DNA of 64,000 nt from NCBI GenBank assembly GCA_965213675.1, contig OZ243916.1:3907525-3971524 (forward strand). Direction: 5' to 3'. Source of the DNA: an uncultured Candidatus Binatia bacterium. GTDB lineage: Bacteria; Desulfobacterota; Binatia; UBA9968; JAJDTQ01. Below the pieces are notes generated by a model. The model was given only the letters and a program-made list of their open reading frames with translations, was not told the DNA's origin and ran no database searches. Shown here piece after piece: positions 42,420 through 51,575 of the stretch (positions within the stretch are counted from its first letter, which is position 1; every line of letters begins with the position of its first letter). The position numbers were made by a program, and so were the translations under genes.

Positions 42420-44636
42420 TCACCTGTCCCGCAACGCGTTGAACACCTTCTCCGCGGTGATGGGCAGATCGAGAATGCGTATCCCCACCGCGGCCTCCAC
42501 CGCGTTGGCGATGGCCGGGGCCGTGGGCACGATGCTCATTTCCCCAATGGCCTTGGCGTTGTAGGGACCGGGGCCGGTCTGGTCCTCCACCAGCACGGTC
42601 TCGAGCTGCGGCAGGTCCTTCACGCACGGCACGCAATAGTCGCCGAGGTTGAGGGTGGTGACCCGCGGCCCGTCCTTGACCATCTCCTCCATGACCGCGT
42701 AGCCCAGCCCCTGCACGAAGCCGCCGTCGATCTGTCCCTGGTGGCCCAGGGGGTTGATGATCGTGCCGACGTCGTGGGCGGTCACCACTTTCTTCACGTC
42801 CACGACGCCGGTCTCCCGGTCCACCGCCACCTCTGCCATTTGCACGAAGAATGCCGGCACGGGCGAGCGCTCGGGCCGGTAGGACTTGTGCACCGACAGT
42901 GCCTTGTCTTCGGCGATGAGTTTTCCGGCCACGTCGGCGAAGGCCAGGGCCGCGCCGCTGGCGCTGAAGCGGCCGTCCGCCAGGGTCACCGCCTCGGGCC
43001 GGCAGCCGAGGGCCTGGGCGGCGGCCTCCGTCATCCGGTGGCGCAGCTCCTCCACCGCTTCCACCAGGCCGCGCCCCACCATGGCGGTGATCTTGCTGCC
43101 GCCGGGTTCAGCATCGGTGTCAAAGGTATCGGTGTCGCCGCGCGCCACCTGCACCCGGTCCGCCGGCAGCGCCAGCATCTCCGCGGTGATCTGGCGCAGC
43201 AAGGTATGCGTGCCGGTGCCGATGTCGGGGATGGCGGTGAGCACCGTGACCCCGCCGCTGGCGTCGCAGGTCAGCTCCAGGTTCACGGTGCCGCTGCCGC
43301 CGGTGTGGCGAAAGGAGAGGGCCATGCCCCGGCCGGTGTCCGGGCCGGCGGGAACGTCGTTCCAGCCCGCCGCCTCGAGCGCGGCCTCGATGGTTTCGCG
43401 GCAGCGGATCTTCTGCATGCCGCGCTTGTTGGGCAACGTGTCGCCGTCCTGCATCAGGTTCTTCAGCCGGAGCGCCACCGGGTCCATGTCGATTTTCCGC
43501 GCCAGCATGTCCAGCAGCGACTCGATGGCGAACACGGTCTGCGGCTGCCCCGGCGACTTCATGTAGCCGCCGGGCACGCTGTTGGTGTAGACGTTGCGCG
43601 TGCGGATGGCGTAGTGGGGGATACGGTAGGCATTGACGATGAACGTGCCGTCGATTTCCGAGGGCTTGAAGCCCGAGTAGGCGCCGCTGTCGAAGTCGAT
43701 GTCGCTGTCCAGGGCCACCAGGGCGCCGTCGCGCTTCGCCCCGAGCTTGACGCGCATCACCGAGCCGTGGCGCGGGTCGCCGGCCATCAACTCCTCGGTG
43801 TAGTTCATCACCATCTTCACCGGGCGCCCCGCGGCCTTGGCGAGGTAGTAACAGACCGGCACGTCCATCTGGGAGCCCTTGCCGCCGAAGTCTCCGCCCA
43901 GGGCCACGCCATGAACATGGATGTTCGCCTCTTCCAACGCCAGTTGCGCCGCCAGCATCTGCTTGAGCCGGAACGGCGCCTTGCACGACGCCCACACCTC
44001 GATGCGCCCGTCGTCCGCCGCCGACACCACCGTGGCGTGGGGCTCCAGGTAGACCTGGTGCACCCCCGGCGTGCGAAAGGTGTGCTCCACGACCACCTCC
44101 GCCTCCGCCATCCCCCGCGCCGCGTCGCCGGCTGTGTGCTCTTTGAGAGAAAGCGCGTTGGGCCGTTCTTCCGGCCGGCCGGGAACGCCCGCATAGTCCG
44201 CCAGCTCCTCGTGGATCACCGGAGCCCCGTCGGCGAGAGCCTCCTCAATGTCCGCCGCCGCGGGCAACTCTTCGTATTCCACCTTGATGAGCCCCAGCGC
44301 TTCCTCCGCCGCGTCGAGGGTGTCCGCGGCCACCGCCGCGATCTTGTCGCCGATGAAGCGTACTTTGTCCCGCGCCAGCACCGGCAGATCCTGCAGGCTC
44401 ACGCCCACGCGGAAATCCGGCACGTCCGCCCCCGTCAGCACCGCCCGCACCCCCGGCACCTGCCGCGCCCGCGATGCGTCCACCCGCACTAGCCGTGCAT
44501 GCGCCAGCGTGCTGCGCAAGCACTTGCCCCACAGCGCTTCCGGCACGTCCACGTCCGCCGTGTACACCATCCGCCCGGAAACCTTGTCCGGACCCTCTAC
44601 GCGCCCTACCGGTTGCCCTACGACCTTGAGATCCAT
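42420..44636 (-). CDS. xanthine dehydrogenase family molybdopterin-binding subunit
   Basis: DKVSG..YTAD, HQVYLEPH, GGDFGGK, DIGTG, GQIDGGFVQGLG, AKAIGE, LPIT. Confidence 0.92.
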   Translation of the reverse strand: MDLKVVGQPVGRVEGPDKVSGRMVYTADVDVPEALWGKCLRSTLAHARLVRVDASRARQVPGVRAVLTGADVPDFRVGVSLQDLPVLARDKVRFIGDKIAAVAADTLDAAEEALGLIKVEYEELPAAADIEEALADGAPVIHEELADYAGVPGRPEERPNALSLKEHTAGDAARGMAEAEVVVEHTFRTPGVHQVYLEPHATVVSAADDGRIEVWASCKAPFRLKQMLAAQLALEEANIHVHGVALGGDFGGKGSQMDVPVCYYLAKAAGRPVKMVMNYTEELMAGDPRHGSVMRVKLGAKRDGALVALDSDIDFDSGAYSGFKPSEIDGTFIVNAYRIPHYAIRTRNVYTNSVPGGYMKSPGQPQTVFAIESLLDMLARKIDMDPVALRLKNLMQDGDTLPNKRGMQKIRCRETIEAALEAAGWNDVPAGPDTGRGMALSFRHTGGSGTVNLELTCDASGGVTVLTAIPDIGTGTHTLLRQITAEMLALPADRVQVARGDTDTFDTDAEPGGSKITAMVGRGLVEAVEELRHRMTEAAAQALGCRPEAVTLADGRFSASGAALAFADVAGKLIAEDKALSVHKSYRPERSPVPAFFVQMAEVAVDRETGVVDVKKVVTAHDVGTIINPLGHQGQIDGGFVQGLGYAVMEEMVKDGPRVTTLNLGDYCVPCVKDLPQLETVLVEDQTGPGPYNAKAIGEMSIVPTAPAIANAVEAAVGIRILDLPITAEKVFNALRDR

Positions 44637-44715
44637 GATTGCTCCTGTGCCTGGTGTCTATGGCGCCGGAAACGGGCAGGCGAGTCCGGCTGAAGTGGGT
44701 GGCCGATCCAGAGGA

Positions 44716-44973
44716 TCACGCGCGGCGATGTGTCGCGACCCAATCCTGAAGCGCTTGGTCGATCCGCGTCTGCCATCCAGGACCGTCCGCCTTGAAATGG
44801 TCGAGGACATTCGCCGACAATCGGATCGTGATCGCCGTTTTGGGTCGCGCTACCGGCGGTCGCCCGCGGCGCACCGTGGCCCTTGCGAACTTCTCCGGCC
44901 ACCCGTCGCGGGACAGATCCGGTGCGGAATCCGGGTCAAAATCGCGGGTAGTAGAGTTCTCTTTCCCGTTCAT
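44716..44973 (-). CDS. brnA: BrnA antitoxin
   Basis: DPDSAPDL, RGRPP..PKTAITIRLS..VLDHFKADGPGWQTRIDQAL. Confidence 0.9.
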   Translation of the reverse strand: MNGKENSTTRDFDPDSAPDLSRDGWPEKFARATVRRGRPPVARPKTAITIRLSANVLDHFKADGPGWQTRIDQALQDWVATHRRA

Positions 44974-45203
44974 TGGCTTTCCTCATGCTGATGATCCGAC
45001 GGGCATCGCCACGGAGTGTCCAGACAACCACCACCATCTCACTGTCAAGAAAGCCGACGGTGATAAAACGGTGCTCACCATAGTCCCGCCGGTCGTCTTC
45101 AACCGTCAACGTCGACCCCGCGAACACGTCCCCGGCTCGGGCCATATCCAGCCCCCTGGCCCTGAGCGTGACGGCGCGTTTAACTTCGTCGAACTCAATC
45201 CAT
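44936..45203 (-). pseudogene. brnT: BrnT toxin, start codon out of frame
   Basis: IEFDEVKRAVTLRARGLDM..DDRRDYGEHRFITVG..RRIISMRKANERE; ATG at 45203 is offset by 1 nt; palindrome tacgtacgta at 45210-45219. Confidence 0.8.
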
Positions 45204-45317
45204 CCCGTTTACGTACGTACATTAATTGGGTTCGTCAAGAACACTCGCCATCCTTCGTCCCAAGGCAGTACGCCGTATCCGCTTGGGACTCCCGGGCGTT
45301 CCGACCGCATCTTGCCG

Positions 45318-45956
45318 TCACCAGACTTCCGGCAAAGTTCGCCAATCCGACGGTGCCGACCAATTCATGAAACGCACCGCTCCCTTTGACAGGTCAAACC
45401 GATCATTCATTCTACGGACGACTTCATCAAGTATGGCGCCGAGCGCGGCCACATCCGCCCTGTTGTAGAGAATCAATTTTCGCAGTGCCTCACGGTCTCC
45501 TCGGAGGTGCCTTTGCCATAGCTTGATAGCCGTAACTCCGTTGAATCTGATTGACTCGTCCCGGACGTCGATTCCCGTGGCTCTTTCGATTTCCTTCTGA
45601 GTGCCGTGGAGCCCAAGAGCATGGCAAATATACATGAGGTCGAGGTGAACCCTTGGAAAAACGATGCCCGGAAAATCTCGTGCGATGAACTTGGCATCGA
45701 AGCGAATCCCATTGAAGGTCACCAGGAACTTCGCGTGCCTGAAGTCCCTGTGAAGCAAGTAGGCGTTCGCCCCTCTTATCATGGTTTTCGTGCAACCGCC
45801 GAAGGACCATCCGATGACGGTGATGTCGTCGAAATGTGGACTCAACCCCGTGGTCTCGATATCAAGAAAAAGACCTCTCTCTGGACAGTGAAGGCACTCC
45901 TCGAGTCGAGCCTTCAACTTCTTCAGGTTCATGCGCGGAACCGTGAATCGACGCAT
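45318..45956 (-). CDS. YprB-like RNase H-fold/DEDD exonuclease domain protein
   Basis: FLDIETTGLS, VTFNGIRFD, HLDL, YNRADV. Confidence 0.82.
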   Translation of the reverse strand: MRRFTVPRMNLKKLKARLEECLHCPERGLFLDIETTGLSPHFDDITVIGWSFGGCTKTMIRGANAYLLHRDFRHAKFLVTFNGIRFDAKFIARDFPGIVFPRVHLDLMYICHALGLHGTQKEIERATGIDVRDESIRFNGVTAIKLWQRHLRGDREALRKLILYNRADVAALGAILDEVVRRMNDRFDLSKGAVRFMNWSAPSDWRTLPEVW

Positions 45957-46015
45957 TTCTGAGGTGGTCCCGATTTTTTCTTGTCCCGCGCCGGTGGGGT
46001 TGCTATGATCGCACC

Positions 46016-46081
46016 ATCGCCGAGGCTATCGCCTTCAACACCCATCGCTTCGTCAAGCGTCTGACCGAGAGCGGCTTCACC
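46016..46081 (+). pseudogene. N-terminal scrap of a DUF1640/CCDC90-like protein
   Basis: AEAIAFNTHRFVKRLTESGFT. Confidence 0.5.
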
Positions 46082-46115
46082 GGTGGCGCTGTGAGTACGA
46101 CGCTTGTTTGGTGAG

Positions 46116-46628
46116 ATGAAGGACACTCTCAAGATCATCCTCACTCTTGTCATCGCGGCCGCCGTTGTCATCGCCCCAGCCGTAACCGTCATCTGGTTCG
46201 CGCTAATACTTCTTCTGTGGGAACTAGTTGGGCGGTGGGCGGCACCGCCGCAATACCGTGACATGGCAGGTCACCGCAAACGCAACCAGACCCGCGCGCG
46301 ACCAAGACGAACGGTAGTTGTGACCATTGGTGTTCGTGGTCAGGAAAAACGCAACCAAACCCAAGACGCGCAAGGTAACCGGCAAACGGGACGCAGTAGG
46401 GAGAACGGTGCCGAAGTCGCGGCCCAGCCGTCGAGGAATCGGACATGGCGTGAAGTTCTGGGATTCAAGGAGGGCGAGAAGCCCACCATGATGCAGGTGA
46501 ACTCCGCGTGGCGTCGCCTGGCAAAGTCAGCCCATCCCGACGTTGGCGGGACCGATTCGCAGATGGCGGAATTGAATGCGGCGTTGGACGAGGCAGGAAG
46601 GGTACTGCAACATAAGCGACCGTCCTAG
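46116..46628 (+). CDS. membrane-anchored J-domain protein
   Basis: N-terminal hydrophobic segment; WREVLG..AWRRLAKSAHPDVGG..MAELNAA. Confidence 0.78.
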   Translation: MKDTLKIILTLVIAAAVVIAPAVTVIWFALILLLWELVGRWAAPPQYRDMAGHRKRNQTRARPRRTVVVTIGVRGQEKRNQTQDAQGNRQTGRSRENGAEVAAQPSRNRTWREVLGFKEGEKPTMMQVNSAWRRLAKSAHPDVGGTDSQMAELNAALDEAGRVLQHKRPS

Positions 46629-46789
46629 TGTGGTGTCTGGTTAATTCGGGTCATAATCTGCGGAGGATTTTTAGTTGTCGGCAAGGCGCGATGACGAGCA
46701 GTGGCGTGTACCACGCGAGGAAGAGCAACGCAGCCGACGGCGAAAAAGACCCGCAGATTATGACCCGATTTAACCAGACACCACACTAG
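46625..46789. mobile_element. 165-bp MITE copy 2 (inverted relative to copy 1)
   Basis: CTAG at both ends, full TIRs, interior colinear with the reverse complement of 1706-1870. Confidence 0.88.
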
Positions 46790-46790
46790 G

Positions 46791-46912
46791 CAGATCCGGC
46801 GCGCCATCCGGGTCAAAATCGCGGATAGTAGAACTCCCTTTCGCGTTCATTGGCCTGCCTCATGCTGATGATCCGACGGGCATCGCCACGAGGCGTCCAG
46901 ACGACCACCGCC
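46791..46912 (-). pseudogene. second brnT/brnA junction fragment
   Basis: Diverged direct repeat of ~44914-45035 (VVVWTPRGDARRIISMRQANERE). Confidence 0.8.
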
Positions 46913-46983
46913 AATTCTTCCCTCTTGTCAGCGATGGCGGCATGCATAATCAAGTCTCCCAGGCAGGAGAAGGCCGACGGATT

Positions 46984-47239
46984 CTATTCGATGGCTGAAG
47001 TAGGGCAGGGAGCGAATCTGGAGACGAAGTGTACTTCGTCGATGGCGCTGACCTGTTTTATGAGAAAGGACCGGGGTTGAATCGCCGAAATCCTTCCCGG
47101 AGAGCGTCGTCGAAACTTGAGAAGAAGCCGATGACATCCTCCCCCTGAATCAAGGTGTACTGTCCATGGTGTTCCTGAACGCGGTCGTGATTCGCCATAA
47201 GCTTCCGATATCTTGTGCCATTTCTATTTCCAGCGCCAT
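46984..47239 (-). pseudogene. small DUF5678-like protein with two frameshifts
   Basis: MALEIEMA / YRKL..HHGQYTLIQGEDVIGFFSSFDDALREGFRRF / FLIKQV. Confidence 0.5.
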
Positions 47240-47532
47240 GATCGCACCCCCTGCAGTGGCGCTCCCGTCCTCGGACCCATTTTACGGATGACCCTCTTGC
47301 CCTGCCACGAAACCGTAGTTTCGCTGTTCGTCCAGGAGAAGGTAAGGCCCAGAGTTTTCCATTGAGAGGGAGTTGAAGCCGGCGTTTGGGGGAGGGTCGG
47401 GGCTTGATGTGCCCCGGCTTGCGGACAGTCAGGCGGGGCCTGGACCCGGCGCGGGCATCACACGGGTGTGCGAGCGAATGGAGACAGTGCGCCGCGCCGG
47501 GTCCGGGAGGTTTGTTCGGGAGGGCTGGAAGT

Positions 47533-48882
47533 CTAGTGGCCCTTGGTCTTGGTGGAGACGCCGACGAAGGCCACCTTGGTGGGTTTGCCGGCGACGTTCC
47601 AGCTTTCGACGACCTTGAGGTTCTGGCTATCCAGTTGCAGCACCTTGCCGCCCACGGAGTCGGTGATGAAGACGGCTCCGGGAATGGTCACGACGTGGGG
47701 GCGCGCCCAGAAGCCTGCCTCCACCGGAGTGGCCAGGACATCGCGCGCGGACGCCAGCAGGTCGAGCTTGTGGGCATCGTACATGCGTAGCTCGCCATCG
47801 CTCATCACCACCAGCAGCGCCTTGCCGTCGTGACTCACCGCGGCGTTGATGGGTTTCATGGCGTCCGAGGCGGGGATCAACTGCTTCATGGCGCCTGCCT
47901 TGGGGTCCACGACGTACAGGCCCACCGCGGAGCCGAGAGCGAAGAAGCGGTCCATGCCGGGATAACCCCAGACCGTGGTCAAACGAAAGTCTTCGGGTTC
48001 GCCTTCCGGCGCGGAGATGAACGCCCCTTCGTACTTTCCGTGGTCCGCCTTCACGACCAGGACGCCGCCGCGGCAACCGAAGGCCGCGACATGGCCGTTC
48101 CCTGCGTCGCCGTGCAGATCCTTGCAGCCTTCCTGGCTATGCAGCACCTTGCCCGACAGATCCACGATCTTGGCGCCGATGGGCAGACGGTAGTCCTTGG
48201 GGTTGGCAGCAAAGTCGGGGTGTTGGATGCTGAGCGCGAACAGGTCATGGGCCAGCGGCACCGCCGCGCCGTGGTGGGCGCCGGCGTTGAGCTTGGGCGG
48301 CTTGTGCCGAGCGCCGTTCTTTTCCAGTTCTTGCTCGTTGAGCAGCACGACGTCACCGGAGCCGTCGTAATAGATGGCGGCCCACTTGCCGGCGACATAC
48401 AGGTGCACTGGGCGGTCGCCGCTCAGGTCCAGGTCCAGGCGCTTGAGCGGCCCGGCCACCAGGTCGTAGTGGTCACCGTGCTTTTCCAGGTAGATGCCGC
48501 CGTCGAAGACATGCACGTTGTTGGCATCGCTGGACACCGCGACGGCGAAGCGCCCGTTCTTGGTGGGGTAGATGCGCCCGGCCCGGGAGCCCATGTCGAA
48601 GGCGTCCTGTTCCACGCCGCCGGCCTTCAGGTCGATGACCGACATCTTACTGCTCTCGCCGTCGCCCACGAGCAGCCGGCCCGTGATGGGTGTCCGCTTC
48701 GCGGCAGGAGTGGCTTGGGTCGCCGCAGCCGCGGTGCTGGCGGCGGTCACGGAGCGCTCCGCGGGCGCAGCGGCGGAAGAGGACGGATCCGGTTCCGGAG
48801 CCGCTGTGGCCGGGTTCGCGGTGAGCAACAGGGCTACTGCAACAAACAGGATGACAAGGGGATTCCAGTTGCGGATTCGCAT
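47533..48882 (-). CDS. secreted beta-propeller metal-binding protein, AztD-like metallochaperone
   Basis: Signal peptide, Ala-rich linker, DGGIYLEKHGDH, RPVH, AHHGAAVP, CKDLHG. Confidence 0.75.
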   Translation of the reverse strand: MRIRNWNPLVILFVAVALLLTANPATAAPEPDPSSSAAAPAERSVTAASTAAAATQATPAAKRTPITGRLLVGDGESSKMSVIDLKAGGVEQDAFDMGSRAGRIYPTKNGRFAVAVSSDANNVHVFDGGIYLEKHGDHYDLVAGPLKRLDLDLSGDRPVHLYVAGKWAAIYYDGSGDVVLLNEQELEKNGARHKPPKLNAGAHHGAAVPLAHDLFALSIQHPDFAANPKDYRLPIGAKIVDLSGKVLHSQEGCKDLHGDAGNGHVAAFGCRGGVLVVKADHGKYEGAFISAPEGEPEDFRLTTVWGYPGMDRFFALGSAVGLYVVDPKAGAMKQLIPASDAMKPINAAVSHDGKALLVVMSDGELRMYDAHKLDLLASARDVLATPVEAGFWARPHVVTIPGAVFITDSVGGKVLQLDSQNLKVVESWNVAGKPTKVAFVGVSTKTKGH

Positions 48883-48914
48883 GGGTGCGTGTGTTCCTTT
48901 CGAGTAGAATTGCC

Positions 48915-48954
48915 GATAATGATTTAGCTTTATCATATTATAAACTGTTGTCAA
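48915..48954 (-). promoter_or_regulatory. TTGACA promoter overlapped by a Fur/Zur-like box
   Basis: gataatgatttagctttatc at 48915-48934; -35 TTGACA at 48954-48949; AT-rich island. Confidence 0.5.
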
Positions 48955-49001
48955 GATCTCGTCCCGTTTCCGCAAAATCCTGAGTTGCAGCGAACTCGTG
49001 C

Positions 49002-49030
49002 TTGCCGGTCACGGCCGGCAGTTGTAGAGT
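49002..49030 (+). promoter_or_regulatory. sigma70-type promoter of the repeat-peptide gene
   Basis: TTGCCG-17bp-TAGAGT; inverted repeat gagtt-N6-aactc at 48982-48997 just upstream. Confidence 0.5.
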
Positions 49031-49056
49031 TGTTTCCTGAAGAAAGGAGGGTCCCA

Positions 49057-49218
49057 ATGAAGGAAGCCCGATGGATGCTGTTCGCTATCGCTTTGGGAGT
49101 GGTGGCCTTGGCCGGGAGCCTTTCCGGCTCGGAAGTGCTTTGGCCGCAGGTTGCTGGCGCCGAGATCCCGTGGCCGATGATGGCGGGTGCGGAGATCCCG
49201 TGGCCGATGGTCGCCTGA
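49057..49218 (+). CDS. 53-aa secreted peptide with three tandem 10-aa cassettes
   Basis: AAAGGAGG RBS; MKEARWMLFAIALGVVALAGSL-SGSEVLWPQV-AGAEIPWPMM-AGAEIPWPMV-A; synonymous differences between repeats. Confidence 0.8.
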   Translation: MKEARWMLFAIALGVVALAGSLSGSEVLWPQVAGAEIPWPMMAGAEIPWPMVA

Positions 49219-49370
49219 GCCGGGATGCCCCGCCTTTGTTCATCGACGAGCTGGCCTGAAGCCATCAAGGTTCGCCCTTGGGCGGGCTTGGAGACATCGA
49301 CGCAATGACGCGGGCCGGGCTTTGCCCGGCCTGCTGACATCAAGGTGTACGGACGCAGGAGGATTTGTCC

Positions 49371-51071
49371 ATGGAATATGATCTGCTGGTACGCGGCGGG
49401 CGCGTGGCCGATGGTTCGGGGCTGCCGTCCCATACGGCGGACGTGGGCGTGAAGGATGGCAAGATCGCAGCGGTGGGGCGCCTTAACGGTTCGGCCAGCC
49501 GCACCATCGATGCGGCCGGGCTGGTGGTGTCGCCGGGGTTCATCGACCACCACACCCACATGGACGCGCAGATCCTGTGGGACCCCTACGGCACCTCCGA
49601 GCCGCAGCACGGCATCACCTCCATCGTCATGGGCAACTGCGGGCTGGCGCTGGCGCCGGTGAGCGACGGCGGCGAGGACGCCCTGGTGAAGAGCTTCGTG
49701 CGGGTGGAGGCGATCCCGCGTTCCGCCCTGGAGAAGGGCGTGACCTGGGGCTGGCACAGCTACGGCGAGTACCTGGATGCCCTGGAGGGCCGGCTCGGCA
49801 TCAACGCCGGCGGTCTGGTGGGGCACATCGCGGTGCGCCAGAACGTCATGGGCGAGGAGTCGGTGGAACGCAAGGCCACCGCCGCCGAGGTGCAGACCAT
49901 GAAGCGCCTCGTGCGGGGCGCCATGGACGCGGGCGCGCTGGGGTTCTCCACCAACCGCAATGAGCGCCACATGCGCGAGGACGGCAAGCCCGTGGCCAGC
50001 CGGCTGGCGGACAACGAAGAACTCTACGCCCTGTGCGACGTGCTCGGCGAGATGAACAGCGGCATCATCGAGACCATTCTCGGCCGCAACAAGCTGGAGC
50101 ACTTCGACATCTATCACGACCTGGCCAGCCGGACCCAGCGGCCCATCATCTGGCAGAGCGTGCATCACCGCTGGGCCGAGCCCACGCTGTGGCAGGAGCA
50201 ACTGGACGCGGTGTCGCGCATCTTCCAGGACGGCTACCGCGCCTACGGCTTGACCCAGACCGTGCCGCTGGTACGGCATTTCAACCTGCAGAACGCGCAG
50301 CTCTTCGACGAGTTTCCCACCTGGAAGAACATCATGTTCCTGCCGGTGGAGGTGCGCCAGCAGGCCTTTGCCGATCCGGCCACCCGCGTGAAGCTGCGCG
50401 AGGACCTGAACACCACGCGTATGACCAACTTCCACCGGCGCTGGGACATCGTGCAGGTGGAGAAGGTCGTCAAGGAAGAGAACAAACGCTACGAGGGCAA
50501 GAGCGTGGCGGACATGGCGGCCATGCGCAATCAGGATCCCGTGGATGCGTTCCTGGACCTGTCGCTGGACGAGGGGCTGCTCACCACCTTTCAGAACGCC
50601 AACACCGGCGGCGATGCGCAGGCCATGGGCGAGATCCTGCGCAGCCCCTACGTGCTGGTGGGCACCTCGGACGCCGGAGCCCATGTGATGTACGGCGCCG
50701 ACTTCGGCTACGGCACCACGCTGCTGGGCCTGTGGGTGCGGGAGCGTGGCCTGATGACGCTGGAGGAGGCCGTGCACAAGCTCACTTTCCACGTGGCCTC
50801 GGTCTACGGCCTGGAAGGCCGGGGACTCATCCGGCCGGGCTACGCCGCGGACCTCACCCTGTTCGATCCCGACACGGTGCGCGCCTACGAGCCCGAATGG
50901 GCGGAGGACTACCCGGCCGGCACCAAGCGCCTGATCCAGCGTTCCGACGGCATCCACTACACCATCGTGAACGGCGGCGTGATCTACGAGGATGGCCGCC
51001 TGAGCGGCGACCTGCCGGGCCAGGTGCTGCGCGGCTCCGGCTACGCGCCCAGCTCGGCCGCGGCGGCTTAG
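49371..51071 (+). CDS. amidohydrolase, N-acyl-D-amino-acid deacylase family
   Basis: YDLLVRGGRVADG, PGFIDHHTH, MGNCG, SDAGAH, GYAADLTLFD. Confidence 0.9.
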   Translation: MEYDLLVRGGRVADGSGLPSHTADVGVKDGKIAAVGRLNGSASRTIDAAGLVVSPGFIDHHTHMDAQILWDPYGTSEPQHGITSIVMGNCGLALAPVSDGGEDALVKSFVRVEAIPRSALEKGVTWGWHSYGEYLDALEGRLGINAGGLVGHIAVRQNVMGEESVERKATAAEVQTMKRLVRGAMDAGALGFSTNRNERHMREDGKPVASRLADNEELYALCDVLGEMNSGIIETILGRNKLEHFDIYHDLASRTQRPIIWQSVHHRWAEPTLWQEQLDAVSRIFQDGYRAYGLTQTVPLVRHFNLQNAQLFDEFPTWKNIMFLPVEVRQQAFADPATRVKLREDLNTTRMTNFHRRWDIVQVEKVVKEENKRYEGKSVADMAAMRNQDPVDAFLDLSLDEGLLTTFQNANTGGDAQAMGEILRSPYVLVGTSDAGAHVMYGADFGYGTTLLGLWVRERGLMTLEEAVHKLTFHVASVYGLEGRGLIRPGYAADLTLFDPDTVRAYEPEWAEDYPAGTKRLIQRSDGIHYTIVNGGVIYEDGRLSGDLPGQVLRGSGYAPSSAAAA

Positions 51072-51257
51072 GGGCTTTGGGGAGTGCGCGTCCTGCGCGT
51101 CGCTCCGTTGGTGCGGAGCCACGCGCAGGACGAACGGGAAAAGCTCCGGCAGGGCCGTTCCCTGACCCGGTTCCTGATGCAGTTCGGATCTCGTGCAGGG
51201 CGGCCGGCCGGTCGCCCTTGCGCGCTCCATGGCAGGGAATCAAATCGGAGGAAGAGC

Positions 51258-51575
51258 GTGGGAGTGACCTACATACCGGTGGCGCGCGCGGACGAACTGG
51301 AGCCGGGCGAGCGCAAGGCGGTGGAGTTGAACGGGCGTGCCCTCGTGGTGACGCGGCTGGACAACGACTACTTCGCGTTTTCGCGCTACTGTCCACACGA
51401 GAGCGCGGACCTGATGAACGGCCCCATCCTCGCGGGCAAGGTCCGCTGCGACAACCATGGCTATTGTTTCGACCTCGACTCCGGGGAGTGTGTGCTGCCC
51501 AAGGGCGGCGATCCGCTGACCGTGCTGCCGGTGGAGAAACGCGGAGAGGAACTCTGCATCCGCATCGAGTGGTAG
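51258..51575 (+). CDS. Rieske [2Fe-2S] ferredoxin
   Basis: CPH...CDNH, FDLDSG. Confidence 0.9.
   Translation: MGVTYIPVARADELEPGERKAVELNGRALVVTRLDNDYFAFSRYCPHESADLMNGPILAGKVRCDNHGYCFDLDSGECVLPKGGDPLTVLPVEKRGEELCIRIEW

Follow-up and report, generated by a model that had tools for sequence, protein, structure and literature searches.

Between a gene for an AztD-like protein and a gene for an amidohydrolase in an uncultured Candidatus Binatia bacterium lies a short open reading frame (ORF), P0001, which raises the question of whether it encodes a peptide at all and, if so, whether that peptide is cut into several small products or stays in one piece. The window analyzed here is the whole stretch of 64,000 nt that surrounds it (contig OZ243916.1 of assembly GCA_965213675.1, positions 3,907,525 to 3,971,524 of the forward strand). 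An earlier interpretation, made from the letters alone and here called the sequence-only reading, had described a 53-codon ORF with a ribosome-binding site (RBS) and three 30-nt units, and had taken it for a secreted precursor with several cores. A gene-like ORF with an export-like start and an internal repeat is really present: translation of positions 49057-49218 gave the ORF as described, and the three units and their peptides were recovered at 49123-49212 (Table 1). The data support the view that P0001 is more than a chance ORF, because the combination of a Shine-Dalgarno (SD) sequence with a signal-like start is rare, because its own frame has the best codon score and because the differences between its repeat units are almost all synonymous. 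Beyond this, we give about an even chance to the reading that P0001 is a translated, exported and strain-variable micropeptide gene, or the first cistron of a longer transcript, which would make it a young small ORF of one species.

The N-terminal part of the predicted protein is laid out like a pre-protein of the Sec pathway. A predicted n-region (MKEAR, net charge +1) is followed by an h-region of 11 residues (WMLFAIALGVV, W6-V16) and by A17-L18-A19 at positions -3 to -1, with alternative cleavage predicted after Ser23 or Ser25 (S-L-S, S-G-S). The features of pre-proteins handled by Sec and signal peptidase I (a positively charged n-region, a hydrophobic h-region of 10-15 residues and small residues at -3 and -1) were recognized by inspection and by a crude rule of our own, used in place of a trained predictor. 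The rule asks for a net positive charge in the first 8 residues and for no charge in the next 14 residues, over which the mean Kyte-Doolittle hydropathy must be at least 2.0. On contig C1, which carries P0001, 10 of the 8,639 first-ATG ORFs of 40-80 aa are signal-like by this rule, P0001 included. When all 21,214 ATG starts on C1 that give products of 40-80 aa were counted, GGAGG was located 4-11 nt upstream of 270 starts and a signal-like N-terminus was encoded by 31, with both features combined at three starts, as compared to about 0.4 predicted under independence. The other two of these three starts look like those of real small membrane or secreted proteins. Of the secretion proposed by the sequence-only reading, the Sec-like N-terminus is retained, since it is signal-like by inspection and by our rule, and export is plausible; the repeated cleavage is unsupported.

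Codon usage was scored with a log-odds table trained on 1,465 long ORFs of the same genome that are rich in GC at third codon positions (GC3); the mean GC contents of these ORFs are 67, 46, and 87% at codon positions 1, 2, and 3, respectively. The frame of P0001 obtained +9.1 bits, the best score of the six frames, followed at +3.3 bits by the antisense frame that shares its third positions. A score of +9.1 bits is in the top 4% of windows taken from non-coding frames.

The tail of the ORF consists of three units in tandem. Unit 1 is a weak copy, in which 17-18 of 30 nt and 4 of 10 residues are the same as in units 2 and 3, while units 2 and 3 have in common an exact core of 18 nt (49162-49179 and 49192-49209). 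Such a core match was expected 0.02 times in shuffles of the window, and none of 100 shuffles gave two. Of the 5 differences in 30 nt between units 2 and 3, three are located at the third positions of the A-G-A codons, so that the use of different codons for these residues was as previously described, and the lone residue change is from M to V. In a simulation, five random substitutions resulted in at most one residue change with a probability of about 0.005. Tandem Repeats Finder recovered only a low-scoring array with a period of 15, and the 30-nt repeat was not listed by a second repeat search of the region.

An identical protein is encoded by a second copy on contig C17 of the same assembly. 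This 75-kb contig matches the last ~63 kb of C1 at about 99% identity and then runs on into the first ~7.5 kb of C1, from which it follows that C1 is circular. Judged from this overlap, the C17 copy is a co-assembled second strain haplotype and not a paralogue, and this haplotype probably explains part of the 8% contamination estimate. The two haplotypes differ at 1 of 162 nt in the ORF (49131 G>C, synonymous at Ser25), at 5 of 326 nt of flanking non-coding DNA and at 21 of 1,012 nt of the AztD-like gene. A search of 5.8 billion protein clusters additionally recovered P0002, a 43-aa allele from an assembly in the European Nucleotide Archive (ENA), which is identical to P0001 except that it has one 10-residue unit fewer. 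The sequence-only reading had suggested scoring variation in cassette number, and this allele provides it: on these sequences, the number of units is three or two in near-identical strains. In contigs of four runs from one study, the three-unit form was the only one seen; contigs are silent on expression. The sequence of P0001 has already been deposited as a nameless predicted protein (NCBI and ENA sources).

By all searches made here, P0001 is an orphan restricted to one species, apart from the two-unit allele. A six-frame peptide search of 27 congeners gave a best E-value of 0.079, with chance matches inside long unrelated ORFs, and no homology to the DNA of 48883-49370 was found in these genomes, where the best matches were pieces of 32-54 nt with E-values of at least 5.8e-4. 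Five weak matches were obtained in 400 other genomes of the phylum; the four that were inspected are chance matches and the fifth contains two in-frame TAG stops. The two-unit allele was the only relative in the word-indexed search of the 5.8 billion protein clusters. A HMMER search of 1.84 billion representatives identified the same allele and 16 further proteins (E-values of 1.2e-9 to 6.8e-4), of which nine (114-316 aa) were examined and rejected as unrelated low-complexity tandem repeats, built from other units and lacking a matching signal peptide; the remaining seven have sizes of 397-1910 aa. No Pfam or NCBIfam family was matched by P0001 in profile scans of both databases.

The genomes of 185,579 species were also scanned for the two-cassette pattern E-x-x-W-P-x5-E-x-x-W-P. 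The loci among the best 80 of 91 stretches were repeats with a period of 5 residues, archaeal proteins of roughly 400 aa, or isolated matches in longer frames. One match, AEVHWPQLGGAEVPWPG in a 122-aa frame of an actinomycete metagenome-assembled genome, was judged to be due to chance, with an identity that is mostly forced by the pattern. None of the 600 pattern matches in JGI metagenome contigs and none of the 88 in viral contigs were confirmed, a single match with an E-value of 0.3 was obtained from plasmids, and the best score in the ESM Atlas was 0.75, which is uninformative. The sequence-only reading had itself named a lack of homologues in relatives as a reason to give it up, and such a lack is what was observed, both in the 27 congeners and in the large searches.

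Taken together, the statistics tip the balance toward a frame that is translated, now or in the recent past. Several points weigh against this reading. The motif AAGGAGG is common by itself: it occurs 681 times on C1, and in 438 cases no start codon follows at a distance of 3-10 nt. No promoter was identified on either strand of 48700-49500 at a scan threshold of 9/12 consensus positions; the hexamers and the spacer of the promoter TTGCCG-17-TAGAGT that had been claimed do exist, but they match only 8/12 positions and are thus below the threshold. Among 53-codon windows of real genes, the codon score ranks only at the 6th percentile, and the GC3 of P0001 is 77%, as compared to a gene mean of 87%; the codon evidence alone is ambiguous. 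One antisense frame, which shows 1 change in 9 residues, also reads the three A-G-A differences as synonymous, and because of this the effective significance of the simulation is nearer 0.02-0.03. The earlier argument for selection on the peptide is accordingly weaker than stated, although the differences between units 2 and 3 are indeed nearly all synonymous. The loss of a unit is automatically in frame if the repeat is 30 nt long, and is therefore not evidence of selection, and the comparison of haplotypes (1 vs. 5 substitutions) is compatible with constraint but not significant alone. Finally, that the ORF is translated and co-transcribed, that its product is exported, where it is cut, and that no further processing follows are all inferred.

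The surroundings of P0001 point to a rearrangement. It is located in a segment of about 380 nt, flanked on one side by the promoter/operator region of the AztD-like gene and on the other by the conserved last ~35 nt of the amidohydrolase leader. These ~35 nt are recognizably homologous to the corresponding leader of congeners such as G018, and homology to the congeners' AztD-like upstream regions stops right after TTGTCAAG (48948-48955). The amidohydrolase is a core gene, with 88-96% identity in 27/27 congeners. A conserved 32-nt element, GTTGCACAACC-N6-GATTCAATATGCTGC, is located 105-151 nt before its ATG in 26 of the 27 congeners (at most 5 mismatches; congener loci L026-L052), with a hairpin-prone, GC-rich stretch after it. 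This element, a candidate promoter with operator or a candidate RNA element of the core operon, is absent from both haplotypes of the source genome (G000) and from one other species (G015). The segment has replaced this promoter-like element of the amidohydrolase-Rieske-ferrochelatase gene row. Without the native element, transcription of the amidohydrolase probably starts inside the segment or upstream of it. P0001, which may share the transcript, would then probably be the first cistron or leader of the amidohydrolase-Rieske-ferrochelatase transcript. For annotation, it is of note that another sequence now stands in place of the conserved element upstream of this core operon in the source species.

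In the reading that we favor, the 53-aa pre-peptide would use its N-terminal 19-25 residues as a Sec-type signal peptide or signal anchor. It would be cut once by signal peptidase I, most likely after A17-L18-A19, or would remain uncut as a signal anchor. The product, an acidic peptide of 28-34 residues that is rich in Trp, Pro and Met, would reside in the periplasm or at the inner membrane. Omp85/BamA (two matches above the cut-off), LolA and TonB are present and mark the host as a diderm. The copy number of the 30-nt in-frame tandem duplication changes between strains (three or two units), most simply by recombination between the identical 18-nt cores. P0001 may also be a proto-gene with little or no selected function. 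If translated, it would be an example of how a gene for a small exported peptide appears in a bacterium, with a rearranged promoter region, a strong RBS combined with a hydrophobic start, and a 30-nt in-frame repeat that expands and contracts between strains. It would then be of interest for the birth of genes de novo and for the small proteins that lie hidden in uncultured bacteria.

P0001 might instead be a non-functional frame, opened by chance in a rearranged 5' leader or promoter region that holds a short tandem duplication, and not usefully translated. The complete lack of homologues is in line with such an origin, as are the mediocre codon score, the GC3 below the gene mean and the promoter scan. 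So is the location at a rearrangement junction in a hypervariable spot, where the upstream regions of the amidohydrolase differ widely among congeners and where, near the ORF, haplotype C17 holds 8.4 kb in the place of 2.2 kb in C1. High-GC genomes are also rich in open frames, such as an obviously spurious 759-aa antisense ORF that overlaps P0001. Chance does not readily provide a strong SD sequence at the correct spacing with a signal-like start, a combination seen at only three starts on C1, nor repeat units with nearly all differences synonymous in a frame that scores best of six, and we regard this explanation as somewhat unlikely. We consider it unlikely that P0001 is an upstream ORF that acts in cis, so that its translation or membrane targeting would tune the amidohydrolase-Rieske-ferrochelatase genes while the peptide itself has no function. 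The placement of P0001, 152 nt ahead of the amidohydrolase gene and in the same orientation, the missing native element and the strong hairpin in between would suit this role, and the monitoring leaders SecM, VemP and MifM resemble P0001 in being small upstream ORFs on the same strand as the downstream gene, with an N-terminal export signal and a C-terminal arrest segment that contains Trp and Pro. However, these leaders precede genes for the secretion machinery and have defined arrest motifs close to a hairpin that sequesters the RBS, whereas the gene downstream of P0001 encodes a cytosolic-type amidohydrolase without a role as a secretion factor, and the hairpin lies 37 nt before the amidohydrolase ATG and 92 nt after the stop codon, beyond the reach of a terminating ribosome. 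To our knowledge, P0001 contains no known arrest motif. The 181-nt leader is no more structured than its shuffles (z = -0.79), an Rfam scan gave no meaningful match (only a miRNA model with an E-value of 0.99, up to E = 1), and 26 of the 27 congeners have the same operon without any such ORF.

Two further explanations concern the tail. It could be a relic: a piece of an older gene would have decayed, later undergone internal duplication and ended up behind a new start. The candidate source is the C-terminal segment 'LW(S/P)Q..G...PWLA.AGE' of an alpha/beta hydrolase in some congeners, with which the tail shares, in register, 8-10 of 19 residues and 32-36 of 57 nt (6 congener loci compared). 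The source genome has no close orthologue of this hydrolase (best matches 25-29% identical), and the synonymous pattern might go back to a sequence that once was coding. The resemblance is a weak lead to which we attach little weight, with per-genome E-values of 0.1-0.7 and with best local DNA alignments that are out of register and have scores of 23-27, as compared to a 99th percentile of 25 in the null distribution. There is no synteny between the hydrolase and the ORF locus in complete genomes, the signal peptide is left unexplained, and a relic is, in our view, very unlikely. The probability is lower still that the tail is cut at each small-x-small spacer into EVLWPQV-, EIPWPMM- and EIPWPMV-like pheromones or ribosomally synthesized and post-translationally modified peptides (RiPPs), although the signal-like start precedes repeated cassettes that keep an E-x-x-W-P core and are set apart by small-G-small spacers, the peptide sequence is conserved between units 2 and 3, and the cassette number varies between strains. 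Partner genes were sought by scanning Pfam and NCBIfam profiles against the coding-like ORFs at 30.1-62.9 kb of the window, with the ORFs at 36.9-40.6 kb listed outside the scan. Among the scanned ORFs, no peptidase, radical-SAM or YcaO maturase, ABC exporter or receptor-type regulator was identified within ~19 kb upstream and 15 kb downstream, which agrees with the absence of a receptor or maturase stated by the sequence-only reading. No homologue was found in any congener or database, and hence no conserved signaling system, and a periplasmic peptide in a diderm would still need to cross the outer membrane. Signal peptidase I makes a single cut beside the membrane-embedded h-region, and we know of no case in which it cuts serial internal small-x-small sites in a soluble tail. 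RiPP precursors normally contain a leader that is recognized by adjacent enzymes, and not a Sec signal. With neither homologues nor partner genes among the scanned ORFs, the release of heptapeptides by export and repeated cleavage is unsupported, and as there is no link to a receptor, a maturase or a conserved system, the locus raises no new question on peptide signaling in diderms at present. Just as faint is the prospect of a newly arisen gene for a secreted micropeptide with a strain-variable E-I-P-W-P-M array (two to three copies) under peptide-level selection, which a periplasmic protease encoded elsewhere would cut into several short peptides of Trp, Pro and Met, to serve outside the cell or in the periplasm as a signal or as a binder of metal or another ligand. 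If true, this would place a polyprotein peptide signal outside the Bacillota and show one as it arises in a diderm.

We also compared P0001 to known systems with similar architectures. Felipe-Ruiz et al. (2024; PMC11343458) document tandemly duplicated pheromone propeptides of the Phr type in RRNPPA quorum sensing systems of Bacillota and their phages, which is a point in favor of several cores. Like these propeptides, P0001 is a small ORF with a Sec-type signal (predicted here), repeated copies of a short putative mature peptide, and variation in copy number or sequence between relatives. The layout of a predicted Sec signal followed by a candidate C-terminal mature peptide fits by inspection and by our hydropathy rule. 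However, Phr genes adjoin a gene for a Rap/TPR receptor, and the pro-pheromones of this family (Phr, PapR, NprX, AimP) are encoded beside a cognate cytoplasmic TPR-type receptor (Rap, NprR, PlcR, PrgX or AimR), whereas P0001 adjoins the genes for the AztD-like protein and the amidohydrolase. Phr peptides are matured by extracellular proteases in monoderms, whereas no protease gene was present among the scanned ORFs, and the hosts are monoderm Bacillota or phages, whereas the host here is a diderm and viral contigs yielded no confirmed match. P0001 shows no sequence similarity to the RRNPP(A) pro-pheromones and has no family match.

Cyanobactin precursors of the PatE type have a leader that is recognized by adjacent proteases of the PatA/PatG type and a heterocyclase, and no Sec signal. 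P0001 is similar to PatE in having repeated cores between short conserved spacers in one small precursor. Unlike multicore RiPPs, it has no adjacent maturation enzymes, the scanned ORFs belonging only to housekeeping families, and it is not part of a recurrent precursor family: it has no Pfam or NCBIfam match and only the two-unit allele as a relative. Taxonomically restricted small ORFs of bacteria, possibly of de novo origin, encode micropeptides that are secreted or contain a single membrane helix. This is the best-fitting class for P0001, which is confined to one species, has about 50 aa and one hydrophobic N-terminal segment, and is located in an intergenic, rearranged region with moderately gene-like codon usage. 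It differs from typical members of the class by the in-frame tandem repeat of 30 nt, the copy number of which changes at the strain level.

Table 1. Features of the P0001 locus, with coordinates in the window.
Feature	Position	Strand	Description and basis
ORF P0001	49057..49218, stop included	+	53 aa, MKEARW...PMVA; ATG 49057, TGA 49216-49218; translation
Shine-Dalgarno sequence AAAGGAGG	49043..49050	+	GGAGG-to-ATG gap of 6 nt; read from sequence
Candidate sigma-70-type promoter, weak	49002..49030	+	TTGCCG 49002-49007, 17-nt spacer, TAGAGT 49025-49030
Predicted signal peptide or signal anchor	49057..49113	+	Residues 1-19; inspection and crude hydropathy rule
Unit 1, SGSEVLWPQV	49123..49152	+	Diverged copy; 13 and 12 nt differences in 30 vs. 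units 2 and 3
Unit 2, AGAEIPWPMM	49153..49182	+	Near-identical to unit 3
Unit 3, AGAEIPWPMV	49183..49212	+	5 nt differences from unit 2, giving 1 amino-acid change
Strong hairpin	49310..49334	+	11-nt arms, 3-nt loop, no U tract; inverted repeat and fold
Species-specific segment with ORF, about 380 nt	48956..49334		Congener homology absent
AztD-like beta-propeller protein, periplasmic, putative zinc chaperone relative	47533..48882	-	NCBIfam NF038015, E 1e-34
Amidohydrolase, Amidohydro_3, D-aminoacylase-like	49371..51071	+	Pfam PF07969, E 1.2e-40
BrnA	44716-44973		Within 44640-48900 insertion
BrnT	44936-45145		Within 44640-48900 insertion
RNase_H_2 protein	45318-45956		Within 44640-48900 insertion
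DnaJ-like ORF	46104-46628		Within 44640-48900 insertion
BrnT fragment	46813-46953		Within 44640-48900 insertion

The amidohydrolase and the Rieske protein that had been noted downstream of P0001 were both identified in the family scans. The Rieske ORF (51084-51575) has an N-terminal extension of 60 residues, with the Rieske domain starting from residue 63-64, and its true start is probably internal, giving a Rieske ferredoxin of about 100 aa. LolA and TonB, which had also been claimed, are likewise encoded in the scanned region. The other families in the scanned ORFs are glutamine synthetase, ATP-grasp, RecN-like, NAD kinase, nitroreductase, molybdenum hydroxylase, ferrochelatase, an NMT1-type binding protein, acyltransferase, RNase J, FtsK, DksA, cupin and ProC. 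The only TPR match among these ORFs is in the TonB protein, about 12 kb from P0001.

Haplotype C17 changes only one base of the hairpin upstream of the amidohydrolase, which is located in the loop (49321 T>A), and the congeners contain a hairpin-prone stretch at the matching relative position. A direct repeat of 19 nt (49253-49271 and 49328-49346, 16/19 identical) brackets a 75-nt stretch that bears the hairpin and may have been left behind when a small insertion or duplication arose in the leader.

The AztD-like protein scored 119.8 bits against NF038015, which is below the 400-bit cut-off of this model. In 15 of the 27 congeners, its gene has homologs with 74-78% identity, which lie at other loci in all but G024. 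An AT-rich imperfect palindrome, GATAATGATTTAGCTTTATCAT, followed by TTGTCAAG is located upstream of the gene at 48915-48955 and is kept in the congeners, where the AT-rich palindrome and TTGTCAAG are always found upstream of the AztD-like genes. Several congeners also have perfect palindromes of the TTATTGATAATATATTATCAATAA type near this gene. These palindromes resemble operators of the Zur/Fur type.

In most congeners, a gene for a molybdenum hydroxylase (42420-44636 here) abuts the amidohydrolase promoter region, whereas about 4.7 kb separate the two genes in the source genome. The insertion between them (44640-48900) is variable between species and strains, and contains the BrnA, BrnT, RNase_H_2 and DnaJ-like ORFs and the BrnT fragment listed in Table 1, as well as the AztD-like gene; P0001 is also among the contents of the 4.7 kb. 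Two families of repeats of ~165 nt (e.g., C17:35816-35979 and C17:51298-51460) were also observed, which appear to be MITE- or REP-like and are present in dozens of copies with 96-100% identity across the chromosome.

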